Assembly: GCA_963700635.1 (NCBI GenBank)
Contig: CAVOYH010000004.1
Coordinates: 768,001-832,000, forward strand
Length of the DNA: 64,000 nucleotides
Source of the DNA: an uncultured Bacteroidota bacterium
GTDB taxonomy: Bacteria; Bacteroidota; Ignavibacteria; UBA10030; UBA6906
Reading direction: 5' to 3'
Positions within the stretch are counted from its first letter, which is position 1; each line of letters starts with the position of its first letter. Below, in pieces: positions 1,963 through 21,974 of the stretch. The position numbers and the translations under genes are program-made. Below the pieces are notes generated by a model. It ran no database searches and had not been told where the DNA came from. It saw only the letters and a program-made list of their open reading frames with translations.

Positions 1963-2027
1963 CGGTGGCCGTCGGCCAGTGGCCGTCGGCCGGTGGCCGT
2001 CAGCCGGTGGCTGTTAGCCGGTGGCTG
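1963..2027. repeat. 14-bp (2x7-bp) tandem repeat, ~4.6 copies, overlapping the asd stop codon
   Basis: CGGTGGCCGTCGGC / CAGTGGCCGTCGGC / CGGTGGCCGTCAGC / CGGTGGCTGTTAGC / CGGTGGCTG read directly. Confidence 0.85.
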
Positions 2028-3048
2028 AGGCGCCGCGGAGGAGTCCGTCAGCCACAAGCCGTTCAGCGATCTGCACTGCGTTCGTCGCCGCTCCCTTGCG
2101 GAGGTTGTCGGACACAATCCACAGAGAGAGCCCATTGGGAACCGTCGGGTCCTTCCGCAGCCGCCCGACAAAGACTTCATCCTTCCCCTCAGCATCCCGT
2201 GGCATCGGATACCGGGAGTGCGCCGGCTCATCGACAAGCACGACCCCCGGTGCATGCCGGAGCAGATCTCTGGCCCGGCTGATGTCCACAGGTCTTGCGA
2301 ACTCGACGGTTACCGCCTCGCTGTGTCCGCCGGTAACCGGGACGCGGACGCAGGTTGCGGTGACACGGATCCCGGAGTCTCCCATAATCTTCACCGTCTC
2401 CCGCATCATCTTCAACTCTTCGCGCGTGTATCCGTCCGCTTCAAAGTCGTCGATGTGAGGGATACAGTTAAAGGCGATAGGATGCGGAAACTTCGGAATC
2501 CCGGCATCCCGCCCCTGCAGCTCGGCAATAAGCTGGTCGTATCCCCGCTGGCCGGCTCCGGTGACGGATTGATACGTTGCAACGACCACCCGGATTATCC
2601 CGAATGTATCGTGCAGGGGCTTGAGGGCGACGACCATCTGGATTGTGGAACAGTTCGGGTTTGCGATAATGCCACGGTGTTTCCGGAGGGCGTCCGGATT
2701 TACCTCCGGGACCACAAGCGGCACTTCCGGGTCCATCCGGAAGACGCTGCTGTTGTCCACCACAACAGTTCCGGTTGCCGCAGCGATGGGGGCATACTGA
2801 CGGCTGATGGCTCCGCCGGCGGAAAAGAGGGCAATCTGTGCTCCGGCTCCGCGAAGGCTCTCCTCCGTCAGAACCCTGACCGGCACGTCGGCTCCCCGGA
2901 ACCGGAGGCCCTTACCTGCAGAACGTGCGGAGGCAAAAAGCACAAGCTCCCGCACCGGGAACCGGCGGTCTTCCAGCACCTGTATCATGGTGCGTCCCAC
3001 CATCCCGGTGGCGCCCACCACCGCGACTGTATATTCTGGAGTGTTCAT
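2014..3048 (-). CDS. asd: aspartate-semialdehyde dehydrogenase
   Basis: VVGATGMVG Rossmann motif, DNSS, NPNCST catalytic Cys, DNLRKGAATNAVQIAE. Confidence 0.97.
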   Translation of the reverse strand: MNTPEYTVAVVGATGMVGRTMIQVLEDRRFPVRELVLFASARSAGKGLRFRGADVPVRVLTEESLRGAGAQIALFSAGGAISRQYAPIAAATGTVVVDNSSVFRMDPEVPLVVPEVNPDALRKHRGIIANPNCSTIQMVVALKPLHDTFGIIRVVVATYQSVTGAGQRGYDQLIAELQGRDAGIPKFPHPIAFNCIPHIDDFEADGYTREELKMMRETVKIMGDSGIRVTATCVRVPVTGGHSEAVTVEFARPVDISRARDLLRHAPGVVLVDEPAHSRYPMPRDAEGKDEVFVGRLRKDPTVPNGLSLWIVSDNLRKGAATNAVQIAERLVADGLLRGASATG

Positions 3049-4433
3049 CAGTGAAAGATTTCCTGGTACTGGTCCACGGTGTCAAAGAGTTCCGCGTGAA
3101 GCGCTTGAACGGTTGTTGCCACGGCATTTTCATCGATAACAAAGCTGAAATTAATTTCTGAAGCTCCCTGCGAGATCATGTTGATGTTCACGTGTGTGAT
3201 GGCGTTCAGGACGCGCGCGGCGATGCCCGCGCTGTTGCGCAGCTGGTCACCGACGACGCACACAATCGCCTTCCCGCGGTCCACCGTGACGGTGGCAAAC
3301 TGCTGAAGCGCCAGGACAATCTCGTCCAGGTGCGACGTGTCTTTTACTGTCACCGAGACGCTCACATCGGAGGTCGCCACCGTATGTACCACGGTGCCGT
3401 ACTTATGGAACACATCAAACACATTTTCCAGAAAGCCGTGAGCCAGGAACATTCTTGTGGACACGATGCTGATCAGGGTAATCCCTTCCTTGTACGCCAC
3501 CGACTTGACGATGCAGTGCTGGGTGGTGTGCGGTTCAGCCACGATGAGCGTGCCCTGAAAAGACGGCTTGCGTGAATTTAAGACCCGCACGGGAATCGCC
3601 TTCTGGATGGCCGGGAGAATCGTCTCCGGATGCAGTACCCTCGCACCGAAGTAGGCAAGTTCCGATGCCTCGCGGAAGGACATGATGCGGATACGGCGGG
3701 CGCCGGGCACAACCGACGGGTCTGCCGTGAGGATGCCGTCCACATCCGTCCATATCTGAATCTCATCCGCATCCAGGAGCGCCCCGATAAGCGCGGCCGA
3801 ATGATCCGAGCCACCGCGTCCGATGGTCGTGGTGATACCTCCGCGGGTGGCCCCGATAAAACCCTGGGTGACAACCACCTTGTGCTCGCGCAGCAGCGGG
3901 AGGGCAATCCGGTGCAGCCGGTGCCGGGTTTCAGCAAGATCCGGGACCGCCCGGGTGAACTCCGCGTCGGTGGTCATAAACGTGCGGGCATCCAGCAACG
4001 TGCTGGAGATGCCGGTGTGGCGGAGATACGATTCCAGAATCATGCTTGACAATCGCTCGCCATAGGATGCGAGGAGGTCAAGCGAACGGGGGGTGAGTTC
4101 GCCCAGGATGACTTATGCCGCTCACGAGCGCGAGCAATTCCGCGGCGGAGATATCGATCACGGATTGAACCGCTGCTCGCTCCGGATGGGGGAGGACGTC
4201 CTCGACGATCGTTGCGTGCTGCTGTGCGATCTGCATTACGAGGGCATTTGCCTCTTCGGCGCGCCCCTCGCCGGCCAGGGTCCCTATGTGCAAAAGTTGA
4301 TTGGTCACCCCCGCACAGGCGGAAATCACAACAAGCGTGGTATCGCCGGGGCTGTTCTTCACAATCTCTGCCACCCGGCGCATTGCGTCTCCGTTTTCCA
4401 CGGACGTGCCGCCGAATTTTGTCACAACGAGTT

Positions 4434-4437
<4 letters not shown>
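3048..4437 (-). CDS. lysC: aspartate kinase (apparent 1-bp frameshift near 4110)
   Basis: KFGGTSV N-terminus (ORF 4078-4437) continues in another frame into GRGGSD, WTDVDG, ELAYFGARVLHP and ACT domains (ORF 3048-4052). Confidence 0.9.
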
Positions 4438-7195
<2,758 letters not shown>

Positions 7196-7200
7196 ACATA

Positions 7201-7224
7201 CTGTATATTGTATACAATATACAG
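7201..7224. promoter_or_regulatory. perfect 24-bp palindrome, probable GntR operator
   Basis: CTGTATATTGTATACAATATACAG is its own reverse complement; the TTGTATACAA core matches FadR/GntR-type boxes; lies 10 bp before the gntR start. Confidence 0.8.
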
Positions 7225-7233
7225 AAAGGCCTT

Positions 7234-7971
7234 ATGGCGCGGAAAGCGGCAACAGAACGGAGCGTGGATCTGGGGTTTGACCGGGATGAAGTAAAGACCC
7301 TCCGGGACCGGATCGCGCAACGGATACGGGCATCGATCATTGACGGGCGGATCACGCCCGGGCAGCGGCTCGCGGAACCGGACCTGTCGCTGCAACTGGG
7401 TGTCAGCCGTACGCCCCTGCGCGAGGCGCTTCTGCAGCTTGATTCCGAAGGGTTTGTGCGCGTCACGCCCCGACGCGGGGCGGTGGTAAGCGCGCTTTCC
7501 CATGAAGATGCGCACGATACCTATCAGGTCAAAGGTGTGCTCGAGGCCTTCGCAGCGCGGCTGGCGTGCGAGCGGATGACTGCAGCCGAGCTGAAACAGC
7601 TGCGCGGGATCCACGACCATATGCGCCGCATCGCCGCGGCCCGCACAAAAGACGTCAAAGCCATCCTCCAGAGTAACGCAGAATTCCATCAGGCCCTCAG
7701 CGACGCGTCGGGGAACGAAAAACTTGCCGGCTACATCCGTTCATTGCGCAGCCAGGCACTCCGCTATAATTATATCTATCTGTCCGTCCTCTCACATCTT
7801 GCCACCTCGATGAAGGAACATGACCGTATCCTTGCCGCACTCCAGAAACGTGACGGTGCGGGCGTGGAACGCCTCGTGCGCGCCCACGGCGAAGCAGCAG
7901 GGAAGGCGCTCTGCGCCTACATCGACCGGCATGCGGGAGGGAACCATGTCAACGATCGTCACGGGAGTTGA
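7234..7971 (+). CDS. GntR family (FadR subfamily, FCD domain) transcriptional regulator
   Basis: PGQRLAE..LSLQLGVSRTPLREAL wHTH; NAEFHQAL...EHDRI FCD domain. Confidence 0.92.
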   Translation: MARKAATERSVDLGFDRDEVKTLRDRIAQRIRASIIDGRITPGQRLAEPDLSLQLGVSRTPLREALLQLDSEGFVRVTPRRGAVVSALSHEDAHDTYQVKGVLEAFAARLACERMTAAELKQLRGIHDHMRRIAAARTKDVKAILQSNAEFHQALSDASGNEKLAGYIRSLRSQALRYNYIYLSVLSHLATSMKEHDRILAALQKRDGAGVERLVRAHGEAAGKALCAYIDRHAGGNHVNDRHGS

Positions 7972-7973
7972 AA

Positions 7974-8897
7974 ATGAAAAAAATCCGGGTTGCGGTTGTC
8001 GGGTACGGTAATGTGGGCCGTTGCGCGGTGGAAGCTGTCATCTGTGAACCGGACATGGAGCTTGTCGGGATTGTCGAGGTGCCCGAGGTCGTCTCCAGAG
8101 ACTGTCCCTATTCCGAACGGGATCCCATCGTCCTGCAGCGTACGCGCATCGTCTCGGACGTCAAGGAGCTTTCCGGCATTGACGCGGCCGTGCTCTGCTG
8201 TCCGTCCCGCATCATCCGGGAATCGGCAAAGAAGATGCTCCGCCTCGGGATACGCACGGTGGACAGTTTTGATATGCACCATGAGATCCCCGCGCTCCGC
8301 AAGGAGCTGGACGCTGTTGCAAAGGAGTTTAACTCTGCGGCGATCCTCTCCGCCGGATGGGATCCGGGGATTGACTCGGTGATGCGGGGGTGGTTCCAGG
8401 CAATGGCACCGCGTGGCATCACCTACACGAACTACGGCCCGGGACTCTCCATGGGCCATTCGGTGGCTGTCCGGGAGATCCCCGGAGTGCGCAACGCCAT
8501 CTCCATCACCGTCCCTGTCGGGATGGGCATCCACCGCCGCATGGTGTATGTGCAATTGAAGGAAGGCGCCGAGTTCGAAGCGGTGGAAAAGCTCATCAAA
8601 AAAGATCCCTATTTCGAAAAGGACCGCACGTACGTCTATCAGGTGGAAGACGTCAGCTCGCTGATGGATACCGGTCACGGCGTGCTGCTCGAACGGAACG
8701 GCGTCTCGGGGATCACGCACAACCAGTCGATGCGGTTCCAGCTGAAGGTGAACAATCCGGCCCTGACGGCCCAGGTGATGGTGTCCGCCGCGCGTGCTGT
8801 CATGCAGCAGAAACCGGGATGTTACACCATGATCGAGCTTCCGGTGGTGGATTTTCTCCCCGGTGATGTGGACAGTTTTGTGACACGGTTTGTATGA
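7974..8897 (+). CDS. ddh: meso-diaminopimelate dehydrogenase family (D-amino acid dehydrogenase)
   Basis: VVGYGNVG, TVDSFDMH, SAGWDPG, YGPGLSMGHS, NNPALTAQVMV; resembles the short type-II DAPDH. Confidence 0.88.
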   Translation: MKKIRVAVVGYGNVGRCAVEAVICEPDMELVGIVEVPEVVSRDCPYSERDPIVLQRTRIVSDVKELSGIDAAVLCCPSRIIRESAKKMLRLGIRTVDSFDMHHEIPALRKELDAVAKEFNSAAILSAGWDPGIDSVMRGWFQAMAPRGITYTNYGPGLSMGHSVAVREIPGVRNAISITVPVGMGIHRRMVYVQLKEGAEFEAVEKLIKKDPYFEKDRTYVYQVEDVSSLMDTGHGVLLERNGVSGITHNQSMRFQLKVNNPALTAQVMVSAARAVMQQKPGCYTMIELPVVDFLPGDVDSFVTRFV

Positions 8898-9352
8898 GGA
8901 CGCCCATGAATGATCCCTATGCGCGAAAGCTGATCAACCGGAATTTTTTCTCGGCGAAGGCGGATGTCCATGGCCGCGTGCTTGTGGTGCTGGACGGGCT
9001 CCTGGAAAACCGGAGTCTGGATCTTATCACCCCGATCTCCCGCGCGTTTCCGGGCGGATCGATCATTGAACTGATCGGCACGGATGAAAAGGGAGCGGCA
9101 CCGGGGGAGAGCGTGCAGAAAATTTGTTACATCGCATTTGTGGAGCTGGACGAAGCCGGTGTGTTGCTGGCCGGCGATCCGGTTTCGATCAAAGGTAAAA
9201 ATGTCGGCACGATTGTCGGGTTCGACGATACGCACATGCCCAATCATCAGAATACGATTCTCCGTGTGGAGAAACGGATTTCGGGGGCGGACCTTCGTCT
9301 GAGTCCAGGCGATCCGGTCTGTGTTCACGGTTTTTCAACAACTCCATCCTAA
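8894..9352 (+). CDS. small beta-rich conserved protein (DUF6917-like)
   Basis: RSLDLI..ISRA, GVLLAGD, GFDDTHMPNHQN; family assignment from memory, unverified. Confidence 0.6.
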   Translation: MRTPMNDPYARKLINRNFFSAKADVHGRVLVVLDGLLENRSLDLITPISRAFPGGSIIELIGTDEKGAAPGESVQKICYIAFVELDEAGVLLAGDPVSIKGKNVGTIVGFDDTHMPNHQNTILRVEKRISGADLRLSPGDPVCVHGFSTTPS

Positions 9353-9366
9353 GAAAGGAAACATTG

Positions 9367-10833
9367 ATGGCAAAGCCAGAATTCAAATTTCAGATGTACA
9401 AACGACTGCAGGTGAACACACCCAAGATCTATGCAGACGCAAAAAAGGCCGCCGAAACGCTCAAGATGCCGGCCGAGCTCAAGGGAGTGATCGGTCTCAC
9501 CGGCGCAATCTCCGGATGCCCGTCCCCTCTGCGCGAAGATATTGAAAAGGTGATGGCGGTTGAATCCCGCAAGGTGGTGCCGCTGAACGTGTATGTGGAT
9601 CAGATCCGTGAAATTATCAAGGGCGCTTACGGCGACGACTATGACGCCGCCCCGGTGAATACGTGTGAAGGCGGGCTCTGGACAACATTTGACTGCCTCA
9701 TGACGCCGCCCATGCAGGGGCGTGGCGACAACTACCGCACGCGGTACATCACCCCGTACGAGCGCCACATCCACCATCACGGTGGATACGGACGCCCTTA
9801 CCCGCCCCGTTTTAAGGACATCCTTGCCGACCGGGGCAGCACGGCGGGGGAGCTCGGGTTCTACGGCAAGCGTCAGAACAACCTGGATACGGTGTTTGTG
9901 CCGCTTCCCGGCGCGACCTATCCTGTGCACGGCATCAACTATCACCCCGTACCGTTGTTGAAGAACGTGGACGCAAAGGCCTCGATCGCAGCATTACAGG
10001 CTGCGGCAAAGCAGCACGAACAGCTTCTGGCCGGCTTCGCCTCTCTCGGATATGACACCACCGGCTACGGTTACGGTAAAAAAGACGCTGATGGTACGCC
10101 CGTTCTTCTGAAAGGGATCGCCGGGATTGCCCGCTCGTACGATGTACCGTACGTCATTGACAATGCATGGGGAATGCCCATCATCGGCACCAGCATCAAA
10201 AAGGTGGGCGCCGACGTGATGATCTTCAGCATGGACAAGGCCACCGGTTCGCCGACCAGCGCGCTTATTATCGGGCGGGAAGAAGTTATGGTTCCCATCC
10301 GCCGGGCGCTTGGGTATCATGGCGCACGTTATGGCACCACTGCGTCGTATGGCAAAGCCGCCTACGTGACCATGGATCCGGGGAAGGAAGGCCTTTCGGG
10401 GCAGGTTGCAGCGCTGAAGGTGCTGCGGGACAAGCCCGAAGTCCTGAAAAAACCGATTGATGATCTGTATAAGATCGTGACGGAAGAGTTCCGGAAAATC
10501 GACAGCCGTATCCGTCCCTTCTTCAAGATCGAAAAGAGTTACAACTCGGGCGTGGTGGAAATTAATTACGAGGACAGCTGGAAGGGCGGGCGGCTGGGCA
10601 TTCCGATCTTCTCGATCGAAGACATGTACTCCGGCTCACACCTGCTGCAGGACGGGATGTCGCAGATGGGCATCATCCCGACGATCGCCTATGATGCGAA
10701 CATCTTCATCTCCCCCGGACTCGGCACCACGGATTCGCACGGCCAGGTGATCCCGGAACGGGCCCGGATGGTGGTACGCGGACTGGTGATGCTGATTGAA
10801 ATCGTCTGCGAACATGCCGGAATCTACGAGTAA
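9367..10833 (+). CDS. fold-type I PLP-dependent enzyme, SelA/DgaE-like
   Basis: VIDNAWG (PLP Asp) and FSMDKATGSPTSALIIGREEV (Schiff-base Lys; compare SelA FSGDKLLGGPQAGIIVG); AAGGA RBS. Confidence 0.75.
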   Translation: MAKPEFKFQMYKRLQVNTPKIYADAKKAAETLKMPAELKGVIGLTGAISGCPSPLREDIEKVMAVESRKVVPLNVYVDQIREIIKGAYGDDYDAAPVNTCEGGLWTTFDCLMTPPMQGRGDNYRTRYITPYERHIHHHGGYGRPYPPRFKDILADRGSTAGELGFYGKRQNNLDTVFVPLPGATYPVHGINYHPVPLLKNVDAKASIAALQAAAKQHEQLLAGFASLGYDTTGYGYGKKDADGTPVLLKGIAGIARSYDVPYVIDNAWGMPIIGTSIKKVGADVMIFSMDKATGSPTSALIIGREEVMVPIRRALGYHGARYGTTASYGKAAYVTMDPGKEGLSGQVAALKVLRDKPEVLKKPIDDLYKIVTEEFRKIDSRIRPFFKIEKSYNSGVVEINYEDSWKGGRLGIPIFSIEDMYSGSHLLQDGMSQMGIIPTIAYDANIFISPGLGTTDSHGQVIPERARMVVRGLVMLIEIVCEHAGIYE

Positions 10834-10838
10834 GCGCC

Positions 10839-11093
10839 ATGCGAGCACTGGATCATATCGTTGACGGCCTGGACATAGAAACCTACCTCGTCTGTTCCAG
10901 CGAGCGGGAAGGGAAGGACCTTGCCCTGCGTCTGGGGCAGGAGCTGCAGCTTGGTGAAGTGGATCTGATGTTCCAGGAATTTGACGGGTACGGGATGCGT
11001 GTGCGGATTCGTAAATACGTGCACAGGCCGGGCGACCCGTACCGCTGGCTCGGGGCTTTTGGCGGGGCGCAGGAGAAGGAGGAGGAAACATGA
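10839..11093 (+). CDS. 84-aa protein, possible stand-alone aminomutase dimerisation domain
   Basis: Tightly packed between operon genes (ATGA overlap with the next gene); pattern DG.......L....E....A..+..++.L.E recalls the KamE N-terminus. Confidence 0.6.
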   Translation: MRALDHIVDGLDIETYLVCSSEREGKDLALRLGQELQLGEVDLMFQEFDGYGMRVRIRKYVHRPGDPYRWLGAFGGAQEKEEET

Positions 11094-12898
11094 CTCCCCA
11101 CAACATCCTGTGTGTTCCGCTGGATCCGGTGCACGATGTCGGAATCAAGATCATCCGGAACGCTCTGGCCCGGAGGGGGCACACCACAGTGCTGCTCTCT
11201 CCGGACCTCAGCATGGAAGCTGTGGTCCGGCGGGCGGCGTCAGAGCATTTTGACGACATCCTTGTCAGCCGCACGCTCGGGTATGGTGTGGCGGAGCTGC
11301 TGGGGCGTTTTGTGGATCTGCTGGATGCGGCCGGTGTACGTTCGGGCAGCCGTGTGATTCTGGGGGGAAAGGCAATCACTCCGGAACTGGCTGCCGAGCT
11401 TGGCTTCGACCGTGGGTTCGACGAACATGCTGCCATTGAGGATATCGTGGCGTATGTGGAAGGGCGGCGGAGTGAAGCCGGAACCAGGGAGCGGGTGCGA
11501 GTAAAGCCGGATATCACTGCCGGGTACACCTATGAGGTCCATGATCCGGTCGTGCGTGAGTATCTGGATGAGATTGTTGCAAAACTGCTCCGATGGGCTG
11601 AAGGGAAGAGTACTCCCGGCGTCCGCCGGATGAAAGTACGCGAGGAACTTCTGAAGGCGCCCGATGCAGCCGCGGCGGAGCGATTGGAGAAAGAATACGC
11701 CTCGTACTGCGATCCCGTGATTCTCGAAGCGCGCCGGTCGGGCGTGCTTCCGAAGGGAGTGCGGAAGATAAACCCGCACGAACTTGAATCGGTGCGTGCC
11801 GGGCTCCGGACACGGAGTGCTTACAGGCCGGTTTCCATACGGCATCAGACGGAGAAGCCCCTGGTGTTCAAGTTTCTGGGGAGCGGTTGTCCGTTGATGG
11901 ATCTTGTGCACGGGAAAGTGTGTGAGCGGTGGGGGATAGACGGGTTTCTGGTGATCAATCCCTCATGGGAAGCGCGTTATGAAGGGTTGATGGATGGGTT
12001 GTTGACGCATGAGCAGGACGGCACGATAACTTCCTTTGAGAATGTCCGGTTGATGCGGGAGCTGTTGGATCCGGCAACCTTGCTCACTGTGCGAGCGCAC
12101 CGCGGGCTGAATACGCCCGAGACCGTACTGCTTGCGGGGAGTGCCGGTGCGGAGATGACGAAGATTGATCTGGTGTACGGCTCGCTCGGGGCCGGCACCG
12201 ACCCGGAGCGTCTGGCTGTGGACGGGATCGAGGCGATGCGTCTGGCGGCGCGGTTCGGTATGCCCTTTGATATACCGGGGAACGACGAACTCAGCGGCGT
12301 GCCTGCCTGGAAGACTCTTGCCGGGCTTCTTATTAATGTGCACCTGGGGCGTGCCCTTGGAGCGCGGCCCATACTAAAACCGCTGTTCTGTTACGGTCCG
12401 CACATCGTCATTAACGGACTGATGGATCAGAACTTTGTGGATTACAATACCGCGAAGATACGTGTGCTCCGGGCTCTTGTGGACTCTCCGATCTGGCCCG
12501 GGGAGCCCATTGCATTTATGACGCAGAGTGAAGACCGGGTACAATCGGCGAGTGCGACTGCCTTTCATGCTGCGCTTGCTGTGGCACTGGGTGTAGATGC
12601 CATCACCATCGCATCCACTGATGAGGCCTACTCGCGCGGACCGATATGTCTGGCCTCGCGGCTTGACAGTATTCAGGGTGTGCGCGAAGGAGCGCGGTTT
12701 CTGGGCGATGCATCGTTCACGCCGACTGCGGCATCGGAGCGTACGGCCGGGGAGATGACAGAGAAGATCCGGGAGACGCTTGACCGGGTGCGGCAGGCGG
12801 AGCATCTTCCGGCTGCCATCCATGCGGGTTTGCTGGGTGACAGTGAAGATGGGGCATATCCCGGGACATTCGGGAAAGGAACGGTTGTCGGGGCGTGA
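11090..12898 (+). CDS. cobalamin-dependent mutase-like protein (N-terminal B12-binding domain + TIM-barrel-like domain)
   Basis: DPVHDVG (His-on motif), LVSRTL, ILGGKAITPELAAELGFDRGF; C-terminal AVALGVDAITIASTDEA resembles the last barrel strand of glutamate/methylmalonyl-CoA mutases. Confidence 0.8.
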   Translation: MTPHNILCVPLDPVHDVGIKIIRNALARRGHTTVLLSPDLSMEAVVRRAASEHFDDILVSRTLGYGVAELLGRFVDLLDAAGVRSGSRVILGGKAITPELAAELGFDRGFDEHAAIEDIVAYVEGRRSEAGTRERVRVKPDITAGYTYEVHDPVVREYLDEIVAKLLRWAEGKSTPGVRRMKVREELLKAPDAAAAERLEKEYASYCDPVILEARRSGVLPKGVRKINPHELESVRAGLRTRSAYRPVSIRHQTEKPLVFKFLGSGCPLMDLVHGKVCERWGIDGFLVINPSWEARYEGLMDGLLTHEQDGTITSFENVRLMRELLDPATLLTVRAHRGLNTPETVLLAGSAGAEMTKIDLVYGSLGAGTDPERLAVDGIEAMRLAARFGMPFDIPGNDELSGVPAWKTLAGLLINVHLGRALGARPILKPLFCYGPHIVINGLMDQNFVDYNTAKIRVLRALVDSPIWPGEPIAFMTQSEDRVQSASATAFHAALAVALGVDAITIASTDEAYSRGPICLASRLDSIQGVREGARFLGDASFTPTAASERTAGEMTEKIRETLDRVRQAEHLPAAIHAGLLGDSEDGAYPGTFGKGTVVGA

Positions 12899-13962
12899 TC
12901 ATACTCGGGATTGCCGGAACCGCAAAGAACACGGGGAAGACCACCACGCTTGCCGCGTTGCTGGAAGAGGGGCGCCGGAGGGGGATACTGCCCGGTTTGA
13001 CAGGGATCGGGTATGACGGCGAAGAGCGGGACACAGTAACAAACCTTCCGAAGCCCCGGATTCAGGTCTATCCGGGCATGGTAGTAACCACCTCAGAACG
13101 ATGTCTGCATGTATCCACGGCACGCGGCGAGATCCTTTCGCGCACCGGTTTTTTTACGCCGCTGGGTGAGGTACTCATCCTTCGTATAACGAAGCCCGGG
13201 CTACTGGTAGTAGCCGGTCCGAATAAAACCGCGGACCTTGCGGCAGTATGTTCGGAGATGGAGGGGGCGGGAGCGGGGATGGTGTTGGTGGATGGATCGT
13301 TAAACCGGATAGCGCCGTTCAGCATAGCGCATGGTGTAGTGTTTGCCACCGGGGCTGCGCGATCGACGGATGTGGAGGTAGTGCGGAGGGAGGTCCTCGG
13401 AATAGAGTCTATTTTTTCGTATGGAACGGCATCAGTCAAGACTCCGGCGCACCGTGGGATCTGGATGGCAGGGGAAGAGGTCAGGGTACATCTGGCGGGG
13501 AGTGGAGTGCACGGGAGGGCGGACATCGAAAACGCGGTAGGCAAGTTGCCTGCTGGAGTCAGATCGATGGAGATATCGGGAGTTATAACAGAGGAAGGAT
13601 TGCGGGCGCTTGCGGGGACAGCGCAGCGTGGGGAGACAGGTGGGGCGTTGATACTGGACGATCCGATAAAGGTGTTGATTGGAGGGGATCCATCGGTAAT
13701 GGCGGGTCATCTTCGGGCATGTGCGGATGCCGGCCTGTCGCCATTGTACCGGGCCCGTCCGTTGTTATGCGGGATCACGGCCAATCCTTCGTACCCGTCG
13801 TTTGACGGGACAGTATATACTCCGGCCAGAGTTGAGGGTGAGGCATTTGTAGGGAGGATCAGGGAAGGTGTTGGGGTTCGTGTGTATGATCTGGTAGGGG
13901 AGGGTGGGGTTGGGGAGTTGTTTGATTCGTGTCTTTCTGCAGTGCAGTTTCCGCAACAATAA
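12895..13962 (+). CDS. KamB-like P-loop protein (putative B12-mutase reactivase subunit)
   Basis: GIAGTAKNTGKTTT, GLTGIGYDGEERD.VT..PKPRI, LVDGSLNR, FATGAA. Confidence 0.7.
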   Translation: MIILGIAGTAKNTGKTTTLAALLEEGRRRGILPGLTGIGYDGEERDTVTNLPKPRIQVYPGMVVTTSERCLHVSTARGEILSRTGFFTPLGEVLILRITKPGLLVVAGPNKTADLAAVCSEMEGAGAGMVLVDGSLNRIAPFSIAHGVVFATGAARSTDVEVVRREVLGIESIFSYGTASVKTPAHRGIWMAGEEVRVHLAGSGVHGRADIENAVGKLPAGVRSMEISGVITEEGLRALAGTAQRGETGGALILDDPIKVLIGGDPSVMAGHLRACADAGLSPLYRARPLLCGITANPSYPSFDGTVYTPARVEGEAFVGRIREGVGVRVYDLVGEGGVGELFDSCLSAVQFPQQ

Positions 13963-14853
13963 TCTTCTTGACAGTGTAACTCGCGTGCCGCAACCGGGCC
14001 TTCGGCGATGCCCATCCCATTCTGAGGTAGCAGCCAAGGGCTGGAAGGTGTCCACGCCGAACCCTACATTTTCCCCGTGTGGATGAGAACTGTGACAGAC
14101 AAACAGTGTCTGCCTTCGCTGCGGATCTCAGCTCACCCCGGCGGCTTGAGCCCCCCTGAATGCAAGTGTTGACAGTCCAAGCTAGACTCATTAAAGTTCC
14201 TTATAGCTTCAAAATTTACCCCTGATGGAGATCGGGATCTCGTAAGGATTTTGAAATCAAGAGTAAGCTCCGGTATATTATCAGTGTCTCATGTCATATG
14301 CGTGATGGTTCTTGGGTCAGAGGGGAACGAAAGTAGCACGCATAGTCTTTTCGGGACTTATAAGGAAGAAAGTTGCTCAAATTCTTGAGTACAAGGTGAG
14401 CATCCCCCCGTTCATTCGGTCTCCCCAAAAGGCTAATATATCCTGGGAGGCGGGTCCACATGGAAGAACATCGAGCGCGGCAGCGACTAGAACGGCAAAT
14501 CATCCATAATGCTGGGGGGCTATTAGCCTAAGAGTGTCGTAGTGAGTCGTCAGCGTGATGGGATCTGGACGTGGCTTCGTGCAACTCCATCGGTACGATC
14601 GGGAGTTTGCTGAGAATGTCGACCAAGCGTTTTCGGACAAAAGGAACCCTTCTGGTGAAGGAAAGATGAAGTACAATGCTATCGACATGTACCGGAACGA
14701 TCCATCAGCGCAGCTGGGAGGACGGGTCCGGCAGTATCCCGGAGTGGGCATTATGCGTGGCAGAACCAACGGGAAGGGAAAGGTTAGCTCGATGACTGGG
14801 TCGGCTGAGTGAGATTGATGTCCAGATAAAACCAAGGCGCTGGTTTAATCCTG

Positions 14854-14875
14854 TGGGTACACCCACTTTCTTTTG
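14854..14875 (+). terminator. possible weak intrinsic terminator
   Basis: GTGGG-TACA-CCCAC followed by TTTCTTTT. Confidence 0.35.
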
Positions 14876-15411
14876 CACTTTCTGATAAATGTGACTACAT
14901 TCGCGGTATCTGATATTTTGCCTCTATCGAGTGTTATTCCTTCGAGCCCAAGTTAGCCAAATGCAACGCATTAAGTAGACATCGACTTGGCTCGTTCCCC
15001 ATGAGAAGGAGAGAATGTGGCACATGTTGCCATCCCTCGCCTTGAACGTTCGAGACGAAGGTCTCCCGATGAACGCTCGCCTCCTAAACCGGCAGCACAA
15101 TAGTTTCAAGCTGATATCGGACCTCCGCTGCCAGTTGAAATGCACCACCCAGCATTGGCACAGGAGAATCCGCCACCTAGAAAGGGGAAAATCTTAAATT
15201 TTAGGTGCAATTGAATATTCACGCCGAGATAGCCCCAGTCGACAGACATTAGCCCAATTCCTCTATTCGGGCTCCCCAATCGGCTCTGATATTCGTAAAA
15301 ATCAGGAAACCAGTGTAAGATATTAGAAGGGGCGTTGATTTTTCCTCGGCGGATTGGGAGAGCTGTAATATTCGGTCACAGAATTTTCATCTGTCGATTG
15401 GGTCTTGGTGG

Positions 15412-15943
15412 ATGCGAAAAAGCGACCCGGATGTACTAGACACTTACGCAGACTTGATTGCAAAAGCCTATCGGCGCTACAAAGGCTTCTGGATCAATCT
15501 GGCGCGCACCTCCTTGGTAACCCAAGAGGATGGTGAAGATATTGTTCACGGGGTCGTTGGATCGATACTGGCGAGACGCGATATCGGCTTCGAATCGCTC
15601 GAACACGTCCGAAACTACGCTCGCGCGGTCTGTTTTGAACCGTGCCATCCAAATTAGGCAGAGGGCGGTACGAGTGTGTGAATTTGAAGAAGAAGTTTCG
15701 ATCGAAATTGCACCCTTGGAGCAGGTGGAGATTCTTGAGAGGCAGGAGGAGCGTGCTGCGTTACGGGCAGTGATTAATGGGTTGAGTCGACAGGACTATG
15801 AAATCATTAAATTGAGATTCTTTTCCGGACTTACATTTATCGAGATTAGCAGGATGCTTCAAAAGCCAGTATCGACCCTCAAAAGCAGGGAAGACGCTGC
15901 TTTGCGAAGGATCAGAAAGGATATGCAAAAGCGTGCCGGATAG
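15412..15943 (+). CDS. ECF-type RNA polymerase sigma factor (frameshift near 15620)
   Basis: Region 2 (EDGEDIVH...RNY|LARSVLNRAI) and region 4 (LSRQDYEIIKLRFFSGLTFIEISRMLQKPVSTLKSR) lie in different frames. Confidence 0.85.
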
Positions 15944-15980
15944 TAGCGTGGCCTTCAATCTTTGACCCGGAGTCTTCCTG

Positions 15981-16778
15981 ATGAAAAGACATGGCAAATC
16001 TGTTGTCAAGTCATATTCTCTTGTAGATTTTGCTCGCGGACAACTAACCTGCGAAGAATCTCTGGAAATTCTGGGAATTCTCGAGGAAGATTCGACTAGA
16101 TCAGAGGAGCTCGAAATTGTGCTCAGAATGCTTGAGCCCAATTCGGCTGTTGGGAGCTCGGTCATAACCGATGACGAAAAGAAGAAGGCAGGACGCAAGG
16201 CCGTCCGAGATCAGCATACTGGCTTCGAGGTAATAGTCCGTAGTGCTGCGCTCGCAATCCTCGTTGTGGGAACGGCGCTCTTGGCGCAGGAATTTGGAAA
16301 GCCCGAAGGGTTCAATCTTCTTCACGTAAATCCAAATGACATTGACATCAGAACCCGGGGTGAACCCGAAAAGATTGCAGAGATCGCATACGCCTTAATA
16401 TGCGAAGGTGAGAACAAGCGTGCTATGGAACTAGTCGATTGGAGTCTGAGTGCACTTCCGGAAGGTGATGGACGCGCCCATTCACATCTCTTGAAGGGCG
16501 GTCTATTGTTGATGAAGTCGGAAATCTATTACCTGGCAATTTTTTCCCATTTCGATTCGACGCTCGTGCGGCAGGGCTTAAACGAATTAGATCTCGCTCG
16601 CAGGATGTCAGGTCAGAGGAGAGTTATCGAGGGTGCAATTTGGTTGAGCATCAAAGGGAATCTGATGATTGGCGACAGATTCAAGGCGTTGGAACAAATC
16701 GAGGCGTTAGAGTCGAGTGGGGGTGTCCGACATGCGGAAGCAAGTCGGCTAAGGCACTTACTCGATGATTGGGAATGA
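15981..16778 (+). CDS. putative membrane-anchored anti-sigma factor
   Basis: Directly after the ECF; N-terminal LVDFARGQLTCEE helix bundle (degenerate zf-HC2-like, no HxxxCxxC), one TM (~aa 84-102), helical TPR-like C-domain. Confidence 0.65.
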   Translation: MKRHGKSVVKSYSLVDFARGQLTCEESLEILGILEEDSTRSEELEIVLRMLEPNSAVGSSVITDDEKKKAGRKAVRDQHTGFEVIVRSAALAILVVGTALLAQEFGKPEGFNLLHVNPNDIDIRTRGEPEKIAEIAYALICEGENKRAMELVDWSLSALPEGDGRAHSHLLKGGLLLMKSEIYYLAIFSHFDSTLVRQGLNELDLARRMSGQRRVIEGAIWLSIKGNLMIGDRFKALEQIEALESSGGVRHAEASRLRHLLDDWE

Positions 16779-16811
16779 CCACGTATTGAAAATCAGAAGG
16801 GTGCACTTGCC

Positions 16812-19800
16812 ATGAGGATCCCCTTAGCATGGGTCTGCCTAGTCCTCTCGGTTCAAATTGGTTCCGCAGCCAGCAAAATTGAGGCTGACCTACATGTTCA
16901 GCTTCGACGGATAATCGGAAAGGGTCATTACGATGAGGCTCTCCGACGTTGTATGAAACTCCTTATTCAACAACCCCAAACAGCTCAGCTCTATGAGATG
17001 AGTGCAGAGATTGGACAATACGGCGGTCAGTTGCCTGAGGTCAGCGCGTTTCTCAGAGAAAGAATTCGTGCCGGTCAAAACGTGCCATATGCATTGTTTG
17101 GGTGTGGGCAAGTCTATTTGAGGGAGGGAAAATGGTCCAATGCCATGCTAATGTTTGAAAGGGCGCAGTCGTTCGATTTGCAGATACCCTCTCTTTATGC
17201 AGGCATGGAACTAGCCTTCGAGAAACTCAACGGCGTGGATGCAGCGATTGAGTACTATCTCGCGTCTTCGCAGCGTGATCCGCGCAATGCAGGGATCTGG
17301 TATTCACTCGCCCTCGCTTATTGGAGCCGAGCCGATCCCGAAAATACTTTATCAGCAATCGATGAGTCCTTGAGACTTTCTGAAAATGAGCCAAGGTTTC
17401 GTCAACTTAAGGCTGGAGCCATGTACACTTGGTTGCTCGATGATCAATCCTTCAAAGCTGCTACCCACGAGATCCAGGCGGCGATAGCCCTTTGTGACTT
17501 CGATGGGGCTGAGTTTGTAAGGTGGTGTCTGGTAGACGGTTTGTCCTCGCAAGGAGAATGGGATCGGGCGTGTGCCATCGCGAAGGAAGCCAATAAGAGC
17601 GTTCGCGAATTCGGGCAAGTTAAGTGGACAGCGCATATCCACCTCGCGTTGGCGGTAAGAGAGCTAGCTCTGGGGGATCTCCATGGTTCATTAAATCATG
17701 CTGATTCTTCAAGTAAATATTTCAGTATGGTAAATGATGTCGATGGACTTCTTTCGAGTCGGGCCATTAAGATTGGAATACTTCGGGAATCTGGATCCGT
17801 TCAAACCGGACTGAAATACTGCTTCGAGGTATTCTCGGATCTTTCCGAAAGGAGCGACTCACGCCTTTGGGGCGGTGCATTCATCGACGCTGCATGGACG
17901 TTCGCTGAGATCGGAGCATTCCGGATCGCTTTGGCGATGGGTATAGAAGCCCAGCGAATTCTCCAGCGGTGTCTCTACGCAGATTATGATCAGGTTAGAT
18001 TGTACACTGCACTTGGACTGATTCACCAGAAAATCGGTAATCTGCCTCTCGCTATTCGATACCAGCGCCGGGCTCTCGGAATCGCCGAAGCTACCAATGC
18101 TCCACGAAATGCGCTATCTACCTGCGTAGGTCAATTGGCCGTCTCATTACTCTTGTTTGGAGACACGCTTGCTGCACGGACGCATTTTCGACGACAACTC
18201 AATCTTGCAAGAAAAGAGGGAGATCCAGGAGAAGAGAAGAAAGCACTGTATCATCTGGCAGAGCTAGATCTCGGGATGGCCTTGTACGGAGCCGCAAGAA
18301 GGAAAATCGAGACGGCCATGGACATTTCTCGAAAACAGAAAGACGATCGGACACTGAAGCAGTGTTACCTTCTCCTCGGCAGGATCGCGGAAAAGGAGGA
18401 AAAGAAGGGTGAAGCAATGTCGCACTACGGCCGCTCATTGAAGTATTTCAATGAGGAGAGAGGACGAAGACATCTCTTCATGATGACGGTGGAGATGAAG
18501 GAATGGTATCTCACTCAACATGAAGAAATAGTAAATGCACTCTGTCGAGTGGGTCTCATTGATGAAGCTTTTGCCTTGATTGAGAGTGTGCGCTGCGACG
18601 CTCAATACAGGTATCACTCTCGTTCATCTGAATCCAGGCGTGAACTTCGTCGTATTGAGGGCACTAGCGATGTAGAACTCATTATCTCCTCGTACAGGAA
18701 AAGTTGTCGCGACATTTCTACTAAAATGGAGGAAGACAAGATTGATTGGAGTCTACTTCTACCCGCGCTGAGGAAGAACCTTGCGATTGTTGACACACTT
18801 CACCAACTTGAAGAGGTGCCGGGTAGGATCCCAGAATTGCCTGCTACCAGAAACGACTCACGTGAAATCATCTCGCACATTCGGAATCGAATTCTGCAGA
18901 AGGGGGATGCACTTGTTGAGTTCTGGGTGGGGCATGTATCGACGGAGCGGTTTCTTTTGACTCGTGATACTCTTGTACATCATAGTTTGATGTTAGAGAA
19001 GGCGAAGTTGAATAAGTGGGTCATTCCCCTATTGGACCATTTTGGCGGAGAGGGGAGCATAAGCGATTCCTACCGAAGAGAGCGTCCCTCCGGGCAGTAC
19101 CAGGCGGAGCTTGTCGCTATTTCAGATTTGCTGCTGGGGGGTCTTCAGAACTTCCTTCTAGAAAAAGGCAACTTGATAGTGGTTGCAGGTCAGCCACTTG
19201 CGAGCTTGCCCTTCGAAGGAATGGTTTTGAGAACCGCGTCGGGGCTGAGGCAGTTGGTCGAAGAATTTGCGATATCGTATGCCCCGTGCATCTTTGCTTT
19301 GGAACCGCTTCCTGACTTGTCAACATTTGATCCAGCCGATCTTCTTGTGCTGGCTAACCCGCTGCCAGACAAGATCGTCGGAATAGATGCAATGATCCAA
19401 GCGGATTCAATTCGTTCGGGTGCTATGACCGATGGATATCGACTAGAACTGCCGGCAGCAGTAAGAGAGGCAGAGAGAATTCGCGCCGTGTTCGGATCTA
19501 CGAGTGTGATAAGGCTTGGACGTGAGGCCTCTGAAGGAGTCATGGCACGCGAATCAGCGCATTTTCGGATTATCCATATCGCTGCACATTCCACGTCACG
19601 CAAGAAGGTAAGCGATAGGCATGCAATCATCTTGTCTCCTGACGAAGAGAATGATGGGATCCTCGAATACAGGGAAATCGCAGCGCTGGATCTCAGAAGT
19701 GACTTGGTTGTGATCACAGGCTGTAGAGCAGGGGAGCCCAGCAGGGCGAACGATTGGGGAAGTCTCGCGGAGGCGTTCATTGAAGCTGGAGCCTCGAGTG

Positions 19801-20129
19801 TTATCGCGACACATTGGGATGTTGAAGATGTGGTTGCTGACAGGCTCTTTGGGCTATTCTACAGTTACCTAAGATCGGGAGAATCGCGTGCGCGCTCTCT
19901 CCAGTTGGCGAAACTATCTCTAATGAAGGATGGATTTACCGATGTGCGACTTTGGTGTGGTTTTCGACTATTCGGAAGGCATCACCCGATCGCTTGGTCA
20001 AAAAGGGATGACGGGGATGCTGTTGAATATCTTCACGCGGCTGCCGTCGCCTCTTTGCTGCTAATGATGGCCTCAGTGGTATTCTACTCGATCCGAAGAA
20101 AGAAAAGGAAATGTCCCTCGGCATCGTAG
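16812..20129 (+). CDS. TPR-repeat CHAT-domain (caspase-like, clan CD) protease with signal peptide and C-terminal TM anchor
   Basis: TPR helices, LASLPFEGM, IIHIAAHS (His), DGILEYREI, LVVITGCRAG (Cys), AGASSVIATHWDVED; C-terminal hydrophobic helix followed by RRKKRK. Confidence 0.9.
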   Translation: MRIPLAWVCLVLSVQIGSAASKIEADLHVQLRRIIGKGHYDEALRRCMKLLIQQPQTAQLYEMSAEIGQYGGQLPEVSAFLRERIRAGQNVPYALFGCGQVYLREGKWSNAMLMFERAQSFDLQIPSLYAGMELAFEKLNGVDAAIEYYLASSQRDPRNAGIWYSLALAYWSRADPENTLSAIDESLRLSENEPRFRQLKAGAMYTWLLDDQSFKAATHEIQAAIALCDFDGAEFVRWCLVDGLSSQGEWDRACAIAKEANKSVREFGQVKWTAHIHLALAVRELALGDLHGSLNHADSSSKYFSMVNDVDGLLSSRAIKIGILRESGSVQTGLKYCFEVFSDLSERSDSRLWGGAFIDAAWTFAEIGAFRIALAMGIEAQRILQRCLYADYDQVRLYTALGLIHQKIGNLPLAIRYQRRALGIAEATNAPRNALSTCVGQLAVSLLLFGDTLAARTHFRRQLNLARKEGDPGEEKKALYHLAELDLGMALYGAARRKIETAMDISRKQKDDRTLKQCYLLLGRIAEKEEKKGEAMSHYGRSLKYFNEERGRRHLFMMTVEMKEWYLTQHEEIVNALCRVGLIDEAFALIESVRCDAQYRYHSRSSESRRELRRIEGTSDVELIISSYRKSCRDISTKMEEDKIDWSLLLPALRKNLAIVDTLHQLEEVPGRIPELPATRNDSREIISHIRNRILQKGDALVEFWVGHVSTERFLLTRDTLVHHSLMLEKAKLNKWVIPLLDHFGGEGSISDSYRRERPSGQYQAELVAISDLLLGGLQNFLLEKGNLIVVAGQPLASLPFEGMVLRTASGLRQLVEEFAISYAPCIFALEPLPDLSTFDPADLLVLANPLPDKIVGIDAMIQADSIRSGAMTDGYRLELPAAVREAERIRAVFGSTSVIRLGREASEGVMARESAHFRIIHIAAHSTSRKKVSDRHAIILSPDEENDGILEYREIAALDLRSDLVVITGCRAGEPSRANDWGSLAEAFIEAGASSVIATHWDVEDVVADRLFGLFYSYLRSGESRARSLQLAKLSLMKDGFTDVRLWCGFRLFGRHHPIAWSKRDDGDAVEYLHAAAVASLLLMMASVVFYSIRRKKRKCPSAS

Positions 20130-20154
20130 GCTGACTCTGGGTATCCAGTTTCAC

Positions 20155-21103
20155 TCACCCCAGCCCAATCGTAAACGGCGCAAGGGCAAAGCCAACTACT
20201 AAGCATCCACAAACAAAACCACCCTACCTGCATCCGCGTGTGATCCAACGGCGCATCATCAGGCAATACCATCGCCCCACGCGTGCGCCGCTCAAAAAAG
20301 ATGAACAAGATCACCGCCCAGAATAACCAACCCGTCCAACCCCACTCGTCACTCATCCCGATCAACGGCAAAAAACCCAATAACCCCAATCCGGCTAACA
20401 CCCCGATCACCACCCGGCCTATGACCACCGACTTCCCCCCAAACATCGCCCGCACAATGTGACCACCATCCAACTGACCAACTGGTATCAAATTCATCGC
20501 CGTCACCAACAACCCGAACCACCCTACACATAAAAATGGATAATGATACATCTCGTTCATCGGCGGAATAAATGCACCGGGTGCCGGAAGGATCGCCTCC
20601 AACCCCGCATACACAAAGTTTCGCCCAAAAGCTAAACCCCCCGCCGGGATCTGACTCAATCCCACATACTCCGGATGTATCTCGTATAAATAGTCAATCG
20701 ATGGCAATGTCAGAAATCCGATCACCAGGTACGCAACACTCACAACAAAACCTGCAATCGGTCCGGCCGCGCCAATGTCCAGTAACGCCCGACGACTCTG
20801 AACCGGCGACCGTAACTGAATTACCGCCCCTAATGTGCCGAACGGAAAAAGACCCAAAACAAAAGAAGGGAAGGGAAGGAAATACGGCAGGGTGGCCTCT
20901 ACCCCGTGCCGCTTCGCCGCAAGATAATGACCCATCTCGTGACTCAATAACATCAATGACAACAGCACGGCGTACGAAATGCCGTACCCAAAATTTGTCA
21001 GCTCTATCGGATTTTTGTTCAACCACGCCACCCCCGCAAAAGCCATGGTCAGAAAGGTCAGAACAAAAAGAGAGGCATGAACAGCAATAGTTCTAATTCT
21101 CAC
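20155..21103 (-). CDS. site-2 protease (M50 family intramembrane metalloprotease); probable frameshift near 20200
   Basis: HEMGH, FGTLGAVI, DIGAAGPIAG, NLIPVGQLDGGH; the hydrophobic end VVGFALAPFTIGLG* is in another frame with a stop at 20155 (as-read ORF runs to 20084). Confidence 0.9.
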
Positions 21104-21125
21104 GTGCCCTGTAGTATACTGAGGA

Positions 21126-21204
21126 TAATAAAAGAGTAGACACTACGCATAAAGGAGAGACCGCCTTTTGAGCTTCTCATAACTTTCTGCATAGTGCCTA
21201 CTCT
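21126..21204 (-). terminator. long hairpin terminator downstream of the repeat-peptide gene
   Basis: Minus strand AGAGTAGGCACTATGCAGAAAG ... CTTTATGCGTAGTGTCTACTCT forms a 22-bp stem with two G-U pairs and one mismatch, followed by TTTATT. Confidence 0.75.
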
Positions 21205-21247
21205 ATGCCACTCACACCACCAAACAACGACCCGCCAGATAGTAGAA

Positions 21248-21508
21248 TTACGGGCGCGGCGAATCGGGGATTACTGGTACGCCGGAAGTGCGTGGGCGCG
21301 GGGAATCCGGAATCACGGGAACACCGCTCGTCCGCTCTCCAACCACCGGGCGCGGGGAATCGGGAATCACAGGCACTCCGCTGGTCCTTGGACGCGGGGA
21401 ATCGGGAATCACAGGGACTCCACTGGCAAACGCTATGGCTGCGTTTGTAGCGGCTACCGCCACTACTGTGATTACCAGTGAACGAAACCGACGAGCGGTC
21501 TTTGACAT
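21248..21508 (-). CDS. 86-aa secreted precursor with signal peptide and four SGVPVIPDSPRP repeats
   Basis: GGAGGAG RBS just before the ATG; MSKTARRFRS-LVITVVAVAATNAA-IAFA signal peptide; four aa-identical cores differing only by synonymous changes. Confidence 0.9.
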   Translation of the reverse strand: MSKTARRFRSLVITVVAVAATNAAIAFASGVPVIPDSPRPRTSGVPVIPDSPRPVVGERTSGVPVIPDSPRPRTSGVPVIPDSPRP

Positions 21509-21794
21509 AACTCCTCCGTGAAAGAGAAAAGTGACGCTTAGAAAAAAGGTTGATGTGAGTGGTCTTCGCATACCCAGACTCCGCCGCACAATGCGGATGT
21601 ACTCCACCTCAGTACAGGCCCCACCTCAAAATCGGGGACCCTCATAAGAGAGGTGCGTGACTCTGGTCTGTCAATGAAAAACAGGTTTGATGAGGTCAAC
21701 CGGTGAAGCAGGAATCAGAAAAGACACTCTCCCGAATGTCCTCCCCCCGGCTTGACTCATCTGGGGGTGTCTAATAACCTCCATCTGGGTGAGA

Positions 21795-21823
21795 AATATA
21801 GACAGGTCAATGTGCATTGTCAA
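21795..21823 (-). promoter_or_regulatory. sigma70-type promoter for the peptide gene
   Basis: TTGACA(21823-21818)-17 bp-TATATT(21800-21795) on the minus strand. Confidence 0.7.
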
Positions 21824-21884
21824 GTTTTTTTTACAGTTTCGCTTATTTTCTGCGTATAATCGAGGTCGTTTTGGGCGTTTTTTC

Positions 21885-21900: not shown

Positions 21901-21974
21901 ACCTGCCTAACCCTGCGATATCTGTGACCCAAAGCACAGCATTACGGTATTCAAAAAAATTTGCGGTTTTACTC

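Follow-up and report, generated by a model that had tools for sequence, protein, structure and literature searches.

We identified a seven-gene operon at positions 7235–13962 of a 64,000-nucleotide stretch of DNA (hereafter the window) from an uncultured Bacteroidota bacterium of the Ignavibacteria, whose central enzyme appears to belong to the lineage of the lysine 5,6- and ornithine 4,5-aminomutases. In the best-supported reading, a 602-residue B12-binding protein and an 84-residue partner form a new isomerase of this lineage, presumably dependent on adenosylcobalamin (AdoCbl). On balance, and with modest confidence, we favor the view that the whole operon is an inducible, repressor-controlled module for amino-acid catabolism built around this radical isomerase. 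The operon is widely conserved. No description of it was found in the literature covered by our search (on DUF6917, new aminomutases, and diaminopimelate catabolism, with subscription journals outside its coverage), nor was any paper on DUF6917.

All seven genes lie on the + strand and are tightly packed. They encode, in order, a GntR-family regulator, a meso-diaminopimelate D-dehydrogenase (DAPDH), a DUF6917 protein, a pyridoxal 5'-phosphate (PLP) enzyme, the 84-residue protein, the 602-residue B12 enzyme, and a KamB-like P-loop protein. Three junctions overlap by 4 nucleotides (ATGA at 8894, ATGA at 11090, and GTGA at 12895), and the remaining intergenic gaps measure 2–14 nucleotides. The initial annotation had described seven linked, partly overlapping genes behind a perfect palindrome, an arrangement that is borne out at 7201–13962.

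The B12 enzyme (11090–12898, + strand) consists of an N-terminal Rossmann-type B12 domain, a helical linker, and a C-terminal TIM barrel resembling that of KamD. The B12 domain spans residues 5–125 and scores 36.7 bits on PF02310 (cut-off 32.1). Residues P13, V14, H15, D16, V17, and G18 (PVHDVG) are invariant in 20 of 20 sequences, with His15 at the lower-ligand position. When the family profile is searched against solved chains, KamE (E 1.3e-14) and OraE (E 1.2e-9) are the nearest relatives of this domain and outrank corrinoid proteins and glutamate mutase S. The AlphaFold model of the protein, with a predicted local distance difference test score (pLDDT) of 83.8 and a predicted template modeling score of 0.80, places the barrel after the helical linker. 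Its best Foldseek matches are chains of KamD (1xrs_A, E 5e-19, TM 0.62 by target; 8t0v_A, E 6.2e-18; and 9q1a_C), followed by OraE (3kp1_A, E 2e-11) and then by glutamate mutase E (E 7.8e-10) and acyl-CoA mutases. A profile of the barrel aligns R338-G-L-N-T-P-E with S238-G-L-C-M-P-E of KamD, and Y363-G with Y263-G; Y363 is invariant.

The protein thus shares with KamD/KamE (1xrs, 8t0v, 9q1a) a Rossmann-type B12 domain that carries a His ligand, a G-G-x-x-T-x-E-L-A-x-E-L-G-x-D-x-G-F stretch, the TIM-barrel fold, the S/R-G-L-x-x-P-E and Y-G motifs, and a KamB-like gene located directly 3'. However, a single chain here holds both domains and opens with the B12 domain, whereas the B12 domain of OraE is C-terminal (matched at 625–740 of the chain). 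A D-P-V-H-D-V-G sequence replaces the canonical DxHxxG, the Asp of the motif standing at His-3 rather than at His-2, and a separate 84-residue subunit is present that has no detected counterpart in KamD/KamE.

The initial annotation had named a match to a characterised mutase or corrinoid methyltransferase as the outcome that would speak against a new pathway, and none was found: the generic B12-binding Pfam domain alone reaches its cut-off. Scores of the 602-residue protein fall far below the cut-offs of PF09043 (14.9 against 25), the KamE model NF052385 (41.2 against 280), the OraE model NF040743 (15.3 against 800), and the MtgC model (28.5 against 370). It is therefore extremely improbable that the cluster is either a system of corrinoid protein and methyltransferase or an ordinary KamDE set from lysine fermentation. 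In favor of such a reading are the KamB-like neighbor and the weak similarity of the B12 domain to MtgC/MtmC-type corrinoid proteins. However, the B12 domain begins at residue 5, none of the cluster's proteins matched a corrinoid cap-domain or methyltransferase family, and the best structural matches of the barrel are AdoCbl isomerases. As for a KamDE copy, the cluster has no KamC-type partner and no KamA, Kdd, or Kce context, and neither Kce nor a MutL/KamC-type protein was found in the genome. A PF09043 protein was not found there either, a blank that carries little weight because the positive control gave no signal.

The family of the 602-residue protein is large but tight. With 1061 proteins at E ≤ 0.001, it accounts for over 1000 of the protein collection's clusters at 90% identity, and the 120 matches listed (the query included) are 62–100% identical to the query. 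Among 1.84 billion representatives at 50% identity there is one other full-length relative (45% identity), the rest being fragments or bare B12 domains. No fused form was seen among proteins of 1055–3010 amino acids, which is weak evidence. An odd repeat protein of 4358 amino acids (P0151) has 15 separate segments that match residues 220–315 of the B12 enzyme at 26% identity.

The 84-residue protein (10839–11093, + strand) is the predicted small subunit of the B12 enzyme, on the combined evidence of alignment, gene order, and a model of the complex. It has a conserved core of about 70 residues. Its gene stands directly 5' of the B12 gene in 59 of the 59 metagenome loci that hold both, ending anywhere from 12 nucleotides inside to 74 nucleotides before that gene. 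Modeling of the complex between the 84- and 602-residue proteins gave a score of 0.77, against 0.00 for the best of three controls; this mark is reached by 116 of 157 solved complexes and by 2 of 215 mismatched pairs. The modeling runs agree in at least 84% of contacts, the partner has a pLDDT of at least 82, and the modeled contacts fall on the conserved barrel loops 265–273, 306–308, 481–483, and 511–522. These results support the prediction that the 84-residue protein binds the 602-residue protein as a small subunit. No Pfam match, and no NCBIfam match at E 0.01 or better, was obtained for it. A search of its profile against the PDB yielded at best an unrelated stretch of AhpF (E 0.11). The B12 gene occurs without the 84-residue gene in three loci, one of which is cut by a contig end. 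In two loci (L065:11509-13293 and L066:3151-4443) it directly follows the PLP gene and no 84-residue gene was detected, the subunit being either absent or encoded elsewhere.

The gene for the KamB-like protein (12895–13962, + strand), a putative reactivase or chaperone of the B12 enzyme, is the single KamB-type helper gene in the operon. The protein carries the P-loop motif G-T-A-K-N-T-G-K-T-T, and in 33 of 40 loci its gene follows the B12 gene at a distance of no more than 400 nucleotides. The organism itself uses AdoCbl, as indicated by a PduO-type adenosyltransferase in the genome and a methylmalonyl-CoA mutase large-subunit gene at 31025–32617 of the window (PF01642, 745 bits).

The second gene of the operon (7968–8897, + strand, opening with TTG at 7968, the likely start being the ATG at 7974) had been called DAP-dehydrogenase-like (DAP, diaminopimelate). 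The homology was correctly recognized, but the wording was too weak, as the product is a full member of the meso-DAPDH family: it scores 303.7 bits on TIGR01921 (cut-off 180.6) and is similar over its full length to the enzyme of Symbiobacterium thermophilum (3wb9, E 6.7e-120). Nine of the ten meso-DAP contact residues listed for the S. thermophilum enzyme in PMC7424261 are kept (Asp92, Trp121, Ser151, Met152, Gly153, Thr171, Arg181, His227, and Asn253), and Phe146 is replaced by Tyr. In contrast to that enzyme, the gene described here is tied to the B12 cluster, is absent from most relatives, and does not lie in a lysine pathway.

The DUF6917 protein (8894–9352, + strand; PF21891, 138 bits) contains invariant D-P-Y, S-R, and D-T-H-x-P-N-H-x-N motifs and is modeled as an all-beta fold with a pLDDT of 91. 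A Foldseek search of the PDB returned nothing at E ≤ 0.001 (best 0.25), and in a wide VIA-align comparison the highest Z, 4.2, was for generic beta-barrel domains, with no clear structural relative. The following gene (9367–10833, + strand) encodes a fold-type-I PLP enzyme of 488 amino acids, counted from the ATG, that is distantly similar to SelA, DgaE, and sulfhydrylases. Its family has a mean column identity of 78% and includes records named as Bacteroidota, Ignavibacteria, Longimicrobiales, and Bacillota. Among cultured organisms, Thermanaerosceptrum fracticalcis and Desulfovirgula thermocuniculi encode close homologues. K291 is invariant. Alignment to sulfhydrylases, DgaE, SepCysS, and SelA-like chains is limited to the region of the invariant S-x-D-K lysine, too little to indicate a type of reaction. 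With DgaE (D-glucosaminate-6-phosphate ammonia-lyase) and SelA-like enzymes (7lc0) it shares this lysine region. However, only about 60 residues align with DgaE, and the protein is about 120 residues longer and has many invariant residues of its own; it scores below the curated cut-offs of TIGR01437 (27.8 against 385.3) and TIGR00474 (17.3 against 267.9).

The assembly of parts recalls the D-ornithine pathway (OraS/OraE, Ord, and OrtA/OrtB), which likewise has a small and a large B12 subunit, a deaminating dehydrogenase, and a PLP enzyme with a small companion. The parts themselves differ. The Ord model matches the dehydrogenase, a true DAPDH, at no better than E 5.7e-4. No NCBIfam model matches DUF6917 at E ≤ 0.01, as for the 84-residue protein, and the eight weak matches of the PLP enzyme include no model from the ornithine pathway.

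The set of genes is conserved well beyond the window. We examined 12 genome loci from metagenome-assembled genomes named as Bacteroidetes/Bacteroidota and Ignavibacteriae/Ignavibacteria/Ignavibacteriota, together with 80 metagenome loci from a scan seeded with a Bacillota-type homologue of the PLP enzyme. The gene order in all 12 genome loci is DAPDH, DUF6917, PLP enzyme, 84-residue protein, B12 enzyme, KamB as far as their contigs reach, and the concern that the genes might not be conserved together elsewhere can thus be set aside. Where at least 8 kb is available on both sides of the PLP gene (19 metagenome loci), the B12 gene is present in 18, DUF6917 in 17, the 84-residue gene in 17, and KamB in 15. 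The genes for DUF6917, the PLP enzyme, the 84-residue protein, the B12 enzyme, and the KamB-like protein recur jointly in contigs of both Bacteroidota/Ignavibacteriota type and Bacillota type. One locus (L041:922-8040) carries two pairs of DUF6917 and PLP-enzyme genes on one contig, ahead of a single pair of 84-residue and B12 genes.

The metagenome loci fall into two types, A with DAPDH (14 of 80) and B without it (66 of 80). A flavin adenine dinucleotide (FAD) oxidoreductase of about 430 amino acids occurs in 31 loci and a RidA-like gene, between DUF6917 and the PLP gene, in 34; all of these are type B, and the RidA-like gene never occurs together with DAPDH. Rid proteins hydrolyze imines released by flavoenzymes. 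Since the RidA-like gene pairs with the flavoenzyme and not with DAPDH, the two arrangements appear to represent one step, and the comparison suggests that DAPDH and the FAD oxidoreductase with its RidA-like protein perform the same oxidative deamination. In some Bacillota-type loci (L017:12872-13849 and L021:12925-14028, both on the - strand) a PyrK-like protein of PRK05802 type, predicted to bind FAD and nicotinamide adenine dinucleotide, is encoded between the FAD oxidoreductase and the 84-residue gene; it is possibly an electron-transfer partner. Putative transporters are also associated with both types. One with about 12 transmembrane segments and no Pfam family, which the Atlas likens to DcuC/YfcC/NhaC carriers, is found in 15 Bacillota-type loci, and a transporter of the NhaC family follows KamB in 5 type-A loci.

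Expression of the operon is probably controlled by its first gene (7235–7971, + strand), whose product fits the pattern of GntR/FadR-type regulators with an FCD ligand domain: a predicted winged-helix GntR domain (PF00392, 67.4 bits), an FCD domain (PF07729, 95.4 bits), and an inverted-repeat operator. The ATG at 7235 is preceded by a ribosome-binding site, GAAAGG; an alternative TTG start at 7186 in the list of open reading frames would engulf the palindrome. The putative operator, CTGTATATTGTATACAATATACAG (7201–7224, no strand), is a perfect palindrome of 12+12 nucleotides, which we take to be of the FadR/GntR type (consensus T.GT...AC.A). Such a perfect 24-bp palindrome is expected about 0.004 times per 64 kb. 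Its 16-bp core, ATATTGTATACAATAT, is present 5' of the regulator gene in 9 of the 9 related loci examined, where the regulators are 35–59% identical. The palindrome begins 6 nucleotides past a sigma-70-like promoter candidate (7167–7195, + strand), recognized by consensus match, with TTGACT, a 17-nucleotide spacer, and a TG-extended CATATT. FCD regulators are found in both cluster types, with a helix-turn-helix and FCD regulator in 26 type-B loci. In our proposal, the regulator would bind the palindrome over the transcription start, acting as a likely repressor of the operon, and the substrate or an intermediate would release it.

Together, the gene content, the relationships of family and fold, the co-conservation, the exchange of oxidoreductases, and the conserved operator lead us to the following scheme, in which dependence on AdoCbl, the sequence of the reactions, their catabolic direction, and the choice of substrate are inferred. 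The 84- and 602-residue proteins would form a two-subunit AdoCbl radical isomerase, derived from the lysine 5,6-/ornithine 4,5-aminomutase lineage but with the B12 domain attached N-terminal to the barrel. It would shift an amino group of the substrate or rearrange its skeleton, and the KamB-type P-loop helper would keep it loaded with active cofactor. The dehydrogenase would take the amino group off a D-alpha center, a role that would fall to DAPDH here and to the FAD oxidoreductase with the RidA-like imine deaminase in the Bacillota version. The 488-residue PLP enzyme, possibly with DUF6917, may then carry out a further elimination, transamination, or C–C cleavage. The logic of mutase, deaminating oxidoreductase, PLP enzyme, and reactivase that had been proposed in the initial annotation would agree with these parts.

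The distribution of the genes bears on the direction of the pathway. Of 401 genomes sampled from the phylum, 10 carry the B12 gene (6 of 179 genera) and 16 carry DAPDH. Each of the 10 with the B12 gene also encodes DAPDH, and in 9 the two genes share a contig and lie a few kilobases apart. Such rarity argues that the cluster is not housekeeping, and in combination with the FCD repressor and the transporters it fits an accessory, catabolic role better than a biosynthetic one. The opposite possibility is an anabolic or salvage cluster that makes tetrahydrodipicolinate, meso-DAP, or a D-amino acid for the cell wall or lysine; DAPDH would then run as an aminating enzyme. In some Bacteroidota, DAPDH is biosynthetic. 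In addition, the enzyme is the sole DAPDH homologue of the genome, two DapL models remain below cut-off, and genes of aspartate metabolism adjoin the operon. However, 385 of the 401 genomes lack DAPDH and 391 lack the B12 gene, and the present genome holds LysA and, above cut-off, DapF. The pairing of a flavoenzyme with a RidA-like protein in the Bacillota type suits oxidation and not reductive amination, and the FCD repressors and uptake transporters again fit catabolism. We therefore regard an anabolic role as very improbable.

The neighbors in question are asd (2014–3048), an aspartokinase gene (3048–4052), a metX-like gene, and a metY-like gene (within 5571–7151), all on the - strand. An S-adenosylmethionine (SAM) riboswitch (RF00162, 75.6 bits) at 6985–7098 of the - strand lies ahead of the divergent metY-like gene. 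Because these genes are on the other strand and under their own SAM riboswitch, we read their adjacency as unrelated to the operon.

Several observations nevertheless weigh against the scheme that we favor. In sequence, the barrel is a weak match to KamD (E 4e-4 with a barrel-only profile), and the KamB-like protein scores 189.7 bits over its full length on NF052386, below the cut-off of 210, which a Bacillota-type orthologue in L017 does pass (220.1). The operon copy in the window contains no transporter gene, and its aspartate-family neighbors could hint at an anabolic link. Genes that would connect the cluster with cell-wall turnover are few: a NamZ/amidase gene is near it in 4 of 80 loci and a LysA-like decarboxylase gene in 7 of 80, 4 of which appear to reflect lineage synteny, both too few to weigh. 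The NamZ genes, in L068, L072, and L076 (5' of the regulator gene) and in L054, encode a fused NamZ exo-muramidase/MurNAc-L-Ala amidase, and three of these loci also have the LysA-like decarboxylase; such neighbors give a thin hint of peptidoglycan salvage.

The remaining objections on this side concern PLP. We take the spacing between the B12-ligating His and the PLP-anchoring Lys of aminomutases to be 11 residues. The residue 11 positions past His15 is an invariant Leu26, no conserved Lys occurs at 23–29, and the PLP-anchoring Lys was accordingly not found. According to PMC9105233 and PMC4413051, KamE Lys144 and OraE Lys629 hold PLP in the resting enzyme, and KamD Ser238 (the counterpart of Ser162) makes a hydrogen bond to the PLP ring nitrogen; the position of Ser238 in Y-C-S-G-L-C-M-P agrees with a mutagenic primer quoted in PMC9105233. 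The counterpart of Ser238 in the 602-residue family is the invariant Arg338. This mapping of active-site residues takes KamD as its sole reference, since the published Lys629 and Ser162 did not fit the residue numbers of the OraE chain. Because both the Lys and the Ser are missing, the B12 enzyme may not be a PLP aminomutase. However, the invariant lysines of the family are K20, K358, K408, and K456, and K358 stands five residues before Y363 on the same strand, which leaves room for PLP anchored inside the barrel.

The loss of the two residues would also be expected if the B12 enzyme were a PLP-independent carbon-skeleton mutase acting, like glutamate mutase, on a free amino-dicarboxylate, with a PLP lyase following it. 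Glutamate mutase E is among the structural matches of the model (E 7.8e-10), and the PLP enzyme of the operon would take the part played by the ammonia-lyase that follows glutamate mutase. This alternative seems improbable to us, as both domains are nearer to KamDE/OraE than to any skeleton mutase, and the Tyr aligned with KamD Tyr263, presumably the residue that stacks on PLP, is invariant.

A further alternative, to which we give little credence, is a PLP-free aminomutase in which the radical shift would draw on a cyclic ketimine supplied by DAPDH in place of a PLP aldimine. The D-center of meso-DAP would be oxidized, by DAPDH or by the flavoenzyme with the RidA-like protein, and the product would cyclize to tetrahydrodipicolinate, whose built-in C=N bond would serve a radical 1,2-nitrogen shift by the B12 enzyme. 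The ring would contract to 5-(carboxymethyl)-pyrroline-2-carboxylate (open form 3-amino-6-oxopimelate). The next steps, by the PLP enzyme and DUF6917, would be loss of the beta-amino group and cleavage of the beta-keto acid, for instance into acetate and 2-oxoglutarate. Such a mechanism would explain the lost PLP Lys, the exchange of Ser238 for Arg as a carboxylate binder, and the association of a strict DAPDH with the mutase.

Returning to the catabolic module that we favor, the substrate had been proposed to be a (di)amino acid such as DAP or a D-amino acid. Of the two, DAP is favored: since the meso-DAP site is kept in DAPDH, DAP or its oxidized cyclic form is the leading candidate. Our best guess, which we offer tentatively, is meso-DAP or its oxidation product L-2-amino-6-oxopimelate/tetrahydrodipicolinate. 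DAPDHs of the S. thermophilum type also act on other D-amino acids, and with so broad a substrate range the conserved contacts do not prove DAP, a point to be set beside the objections above. The same machinery could instead act on a basic D-amino acid (for example D-lysine or D-ornithine) or on 2,4-diaminobutyrate, with a terminal amino shift as in KamDE/OraSE and DAPDH serving as a broad D-amino-acid dehydrogenase. The closest relatives of the B12 enzyme do act on D-lysine and D-ornithine, and a gene for a ProC-like reductase, possibly a reducer of cyclic imines, follows KamB in 6 Bacillota-type loci. We consider such a substrate unlikely. Thr171, Arg181, and His227, which hold the distal L-amino-acid end of meso-DAP, are all kept, the carriers to which the Bacillota-type transporter is likened argue against it, and the PLP-anchoring Lys that the KamDE/OraSE mechanism requires is missing.

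A few other features of the window and the genome were noted. The metX-like gene (4434–5922, - strand) and the PduO-type adenosyltransferase gene (G000:C4:310877-311367) each extend over two frames and are apparently broken, and lysA (G000:C3:916011-917258) contains one in-frame TAG; these defects may be due to assembly indel error rather than biology. Directly after the operon, at 14000–22000, the G+C content falls from about 0.59 to about 0.50. A 1105-residue protein with TPR and CHAT domains is encoded at 16812–20129, possibly within a foreign island.

To our knowledge, the lysine 5,6- and ornithine 4,5-aminomutases are the only AdoCbl-dependent aminomutases to have been characterized in decades. 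The 602-residue family would add a third branch, distinguished by its permuted architecture and new small subunit, and perhaps by another mode of activating the substrate nitrogen. Should diaminopimelate or some other D-amino acid of the cell wall prove to be the substrate, the operon would represent a pathway by which bacterial necromass is recycled anaerobically in soils, sediments, and digesters. If that reading is true, it would also provide functions for DUF6917 and for an unnamed, highly conserved family of PLP enzymes.

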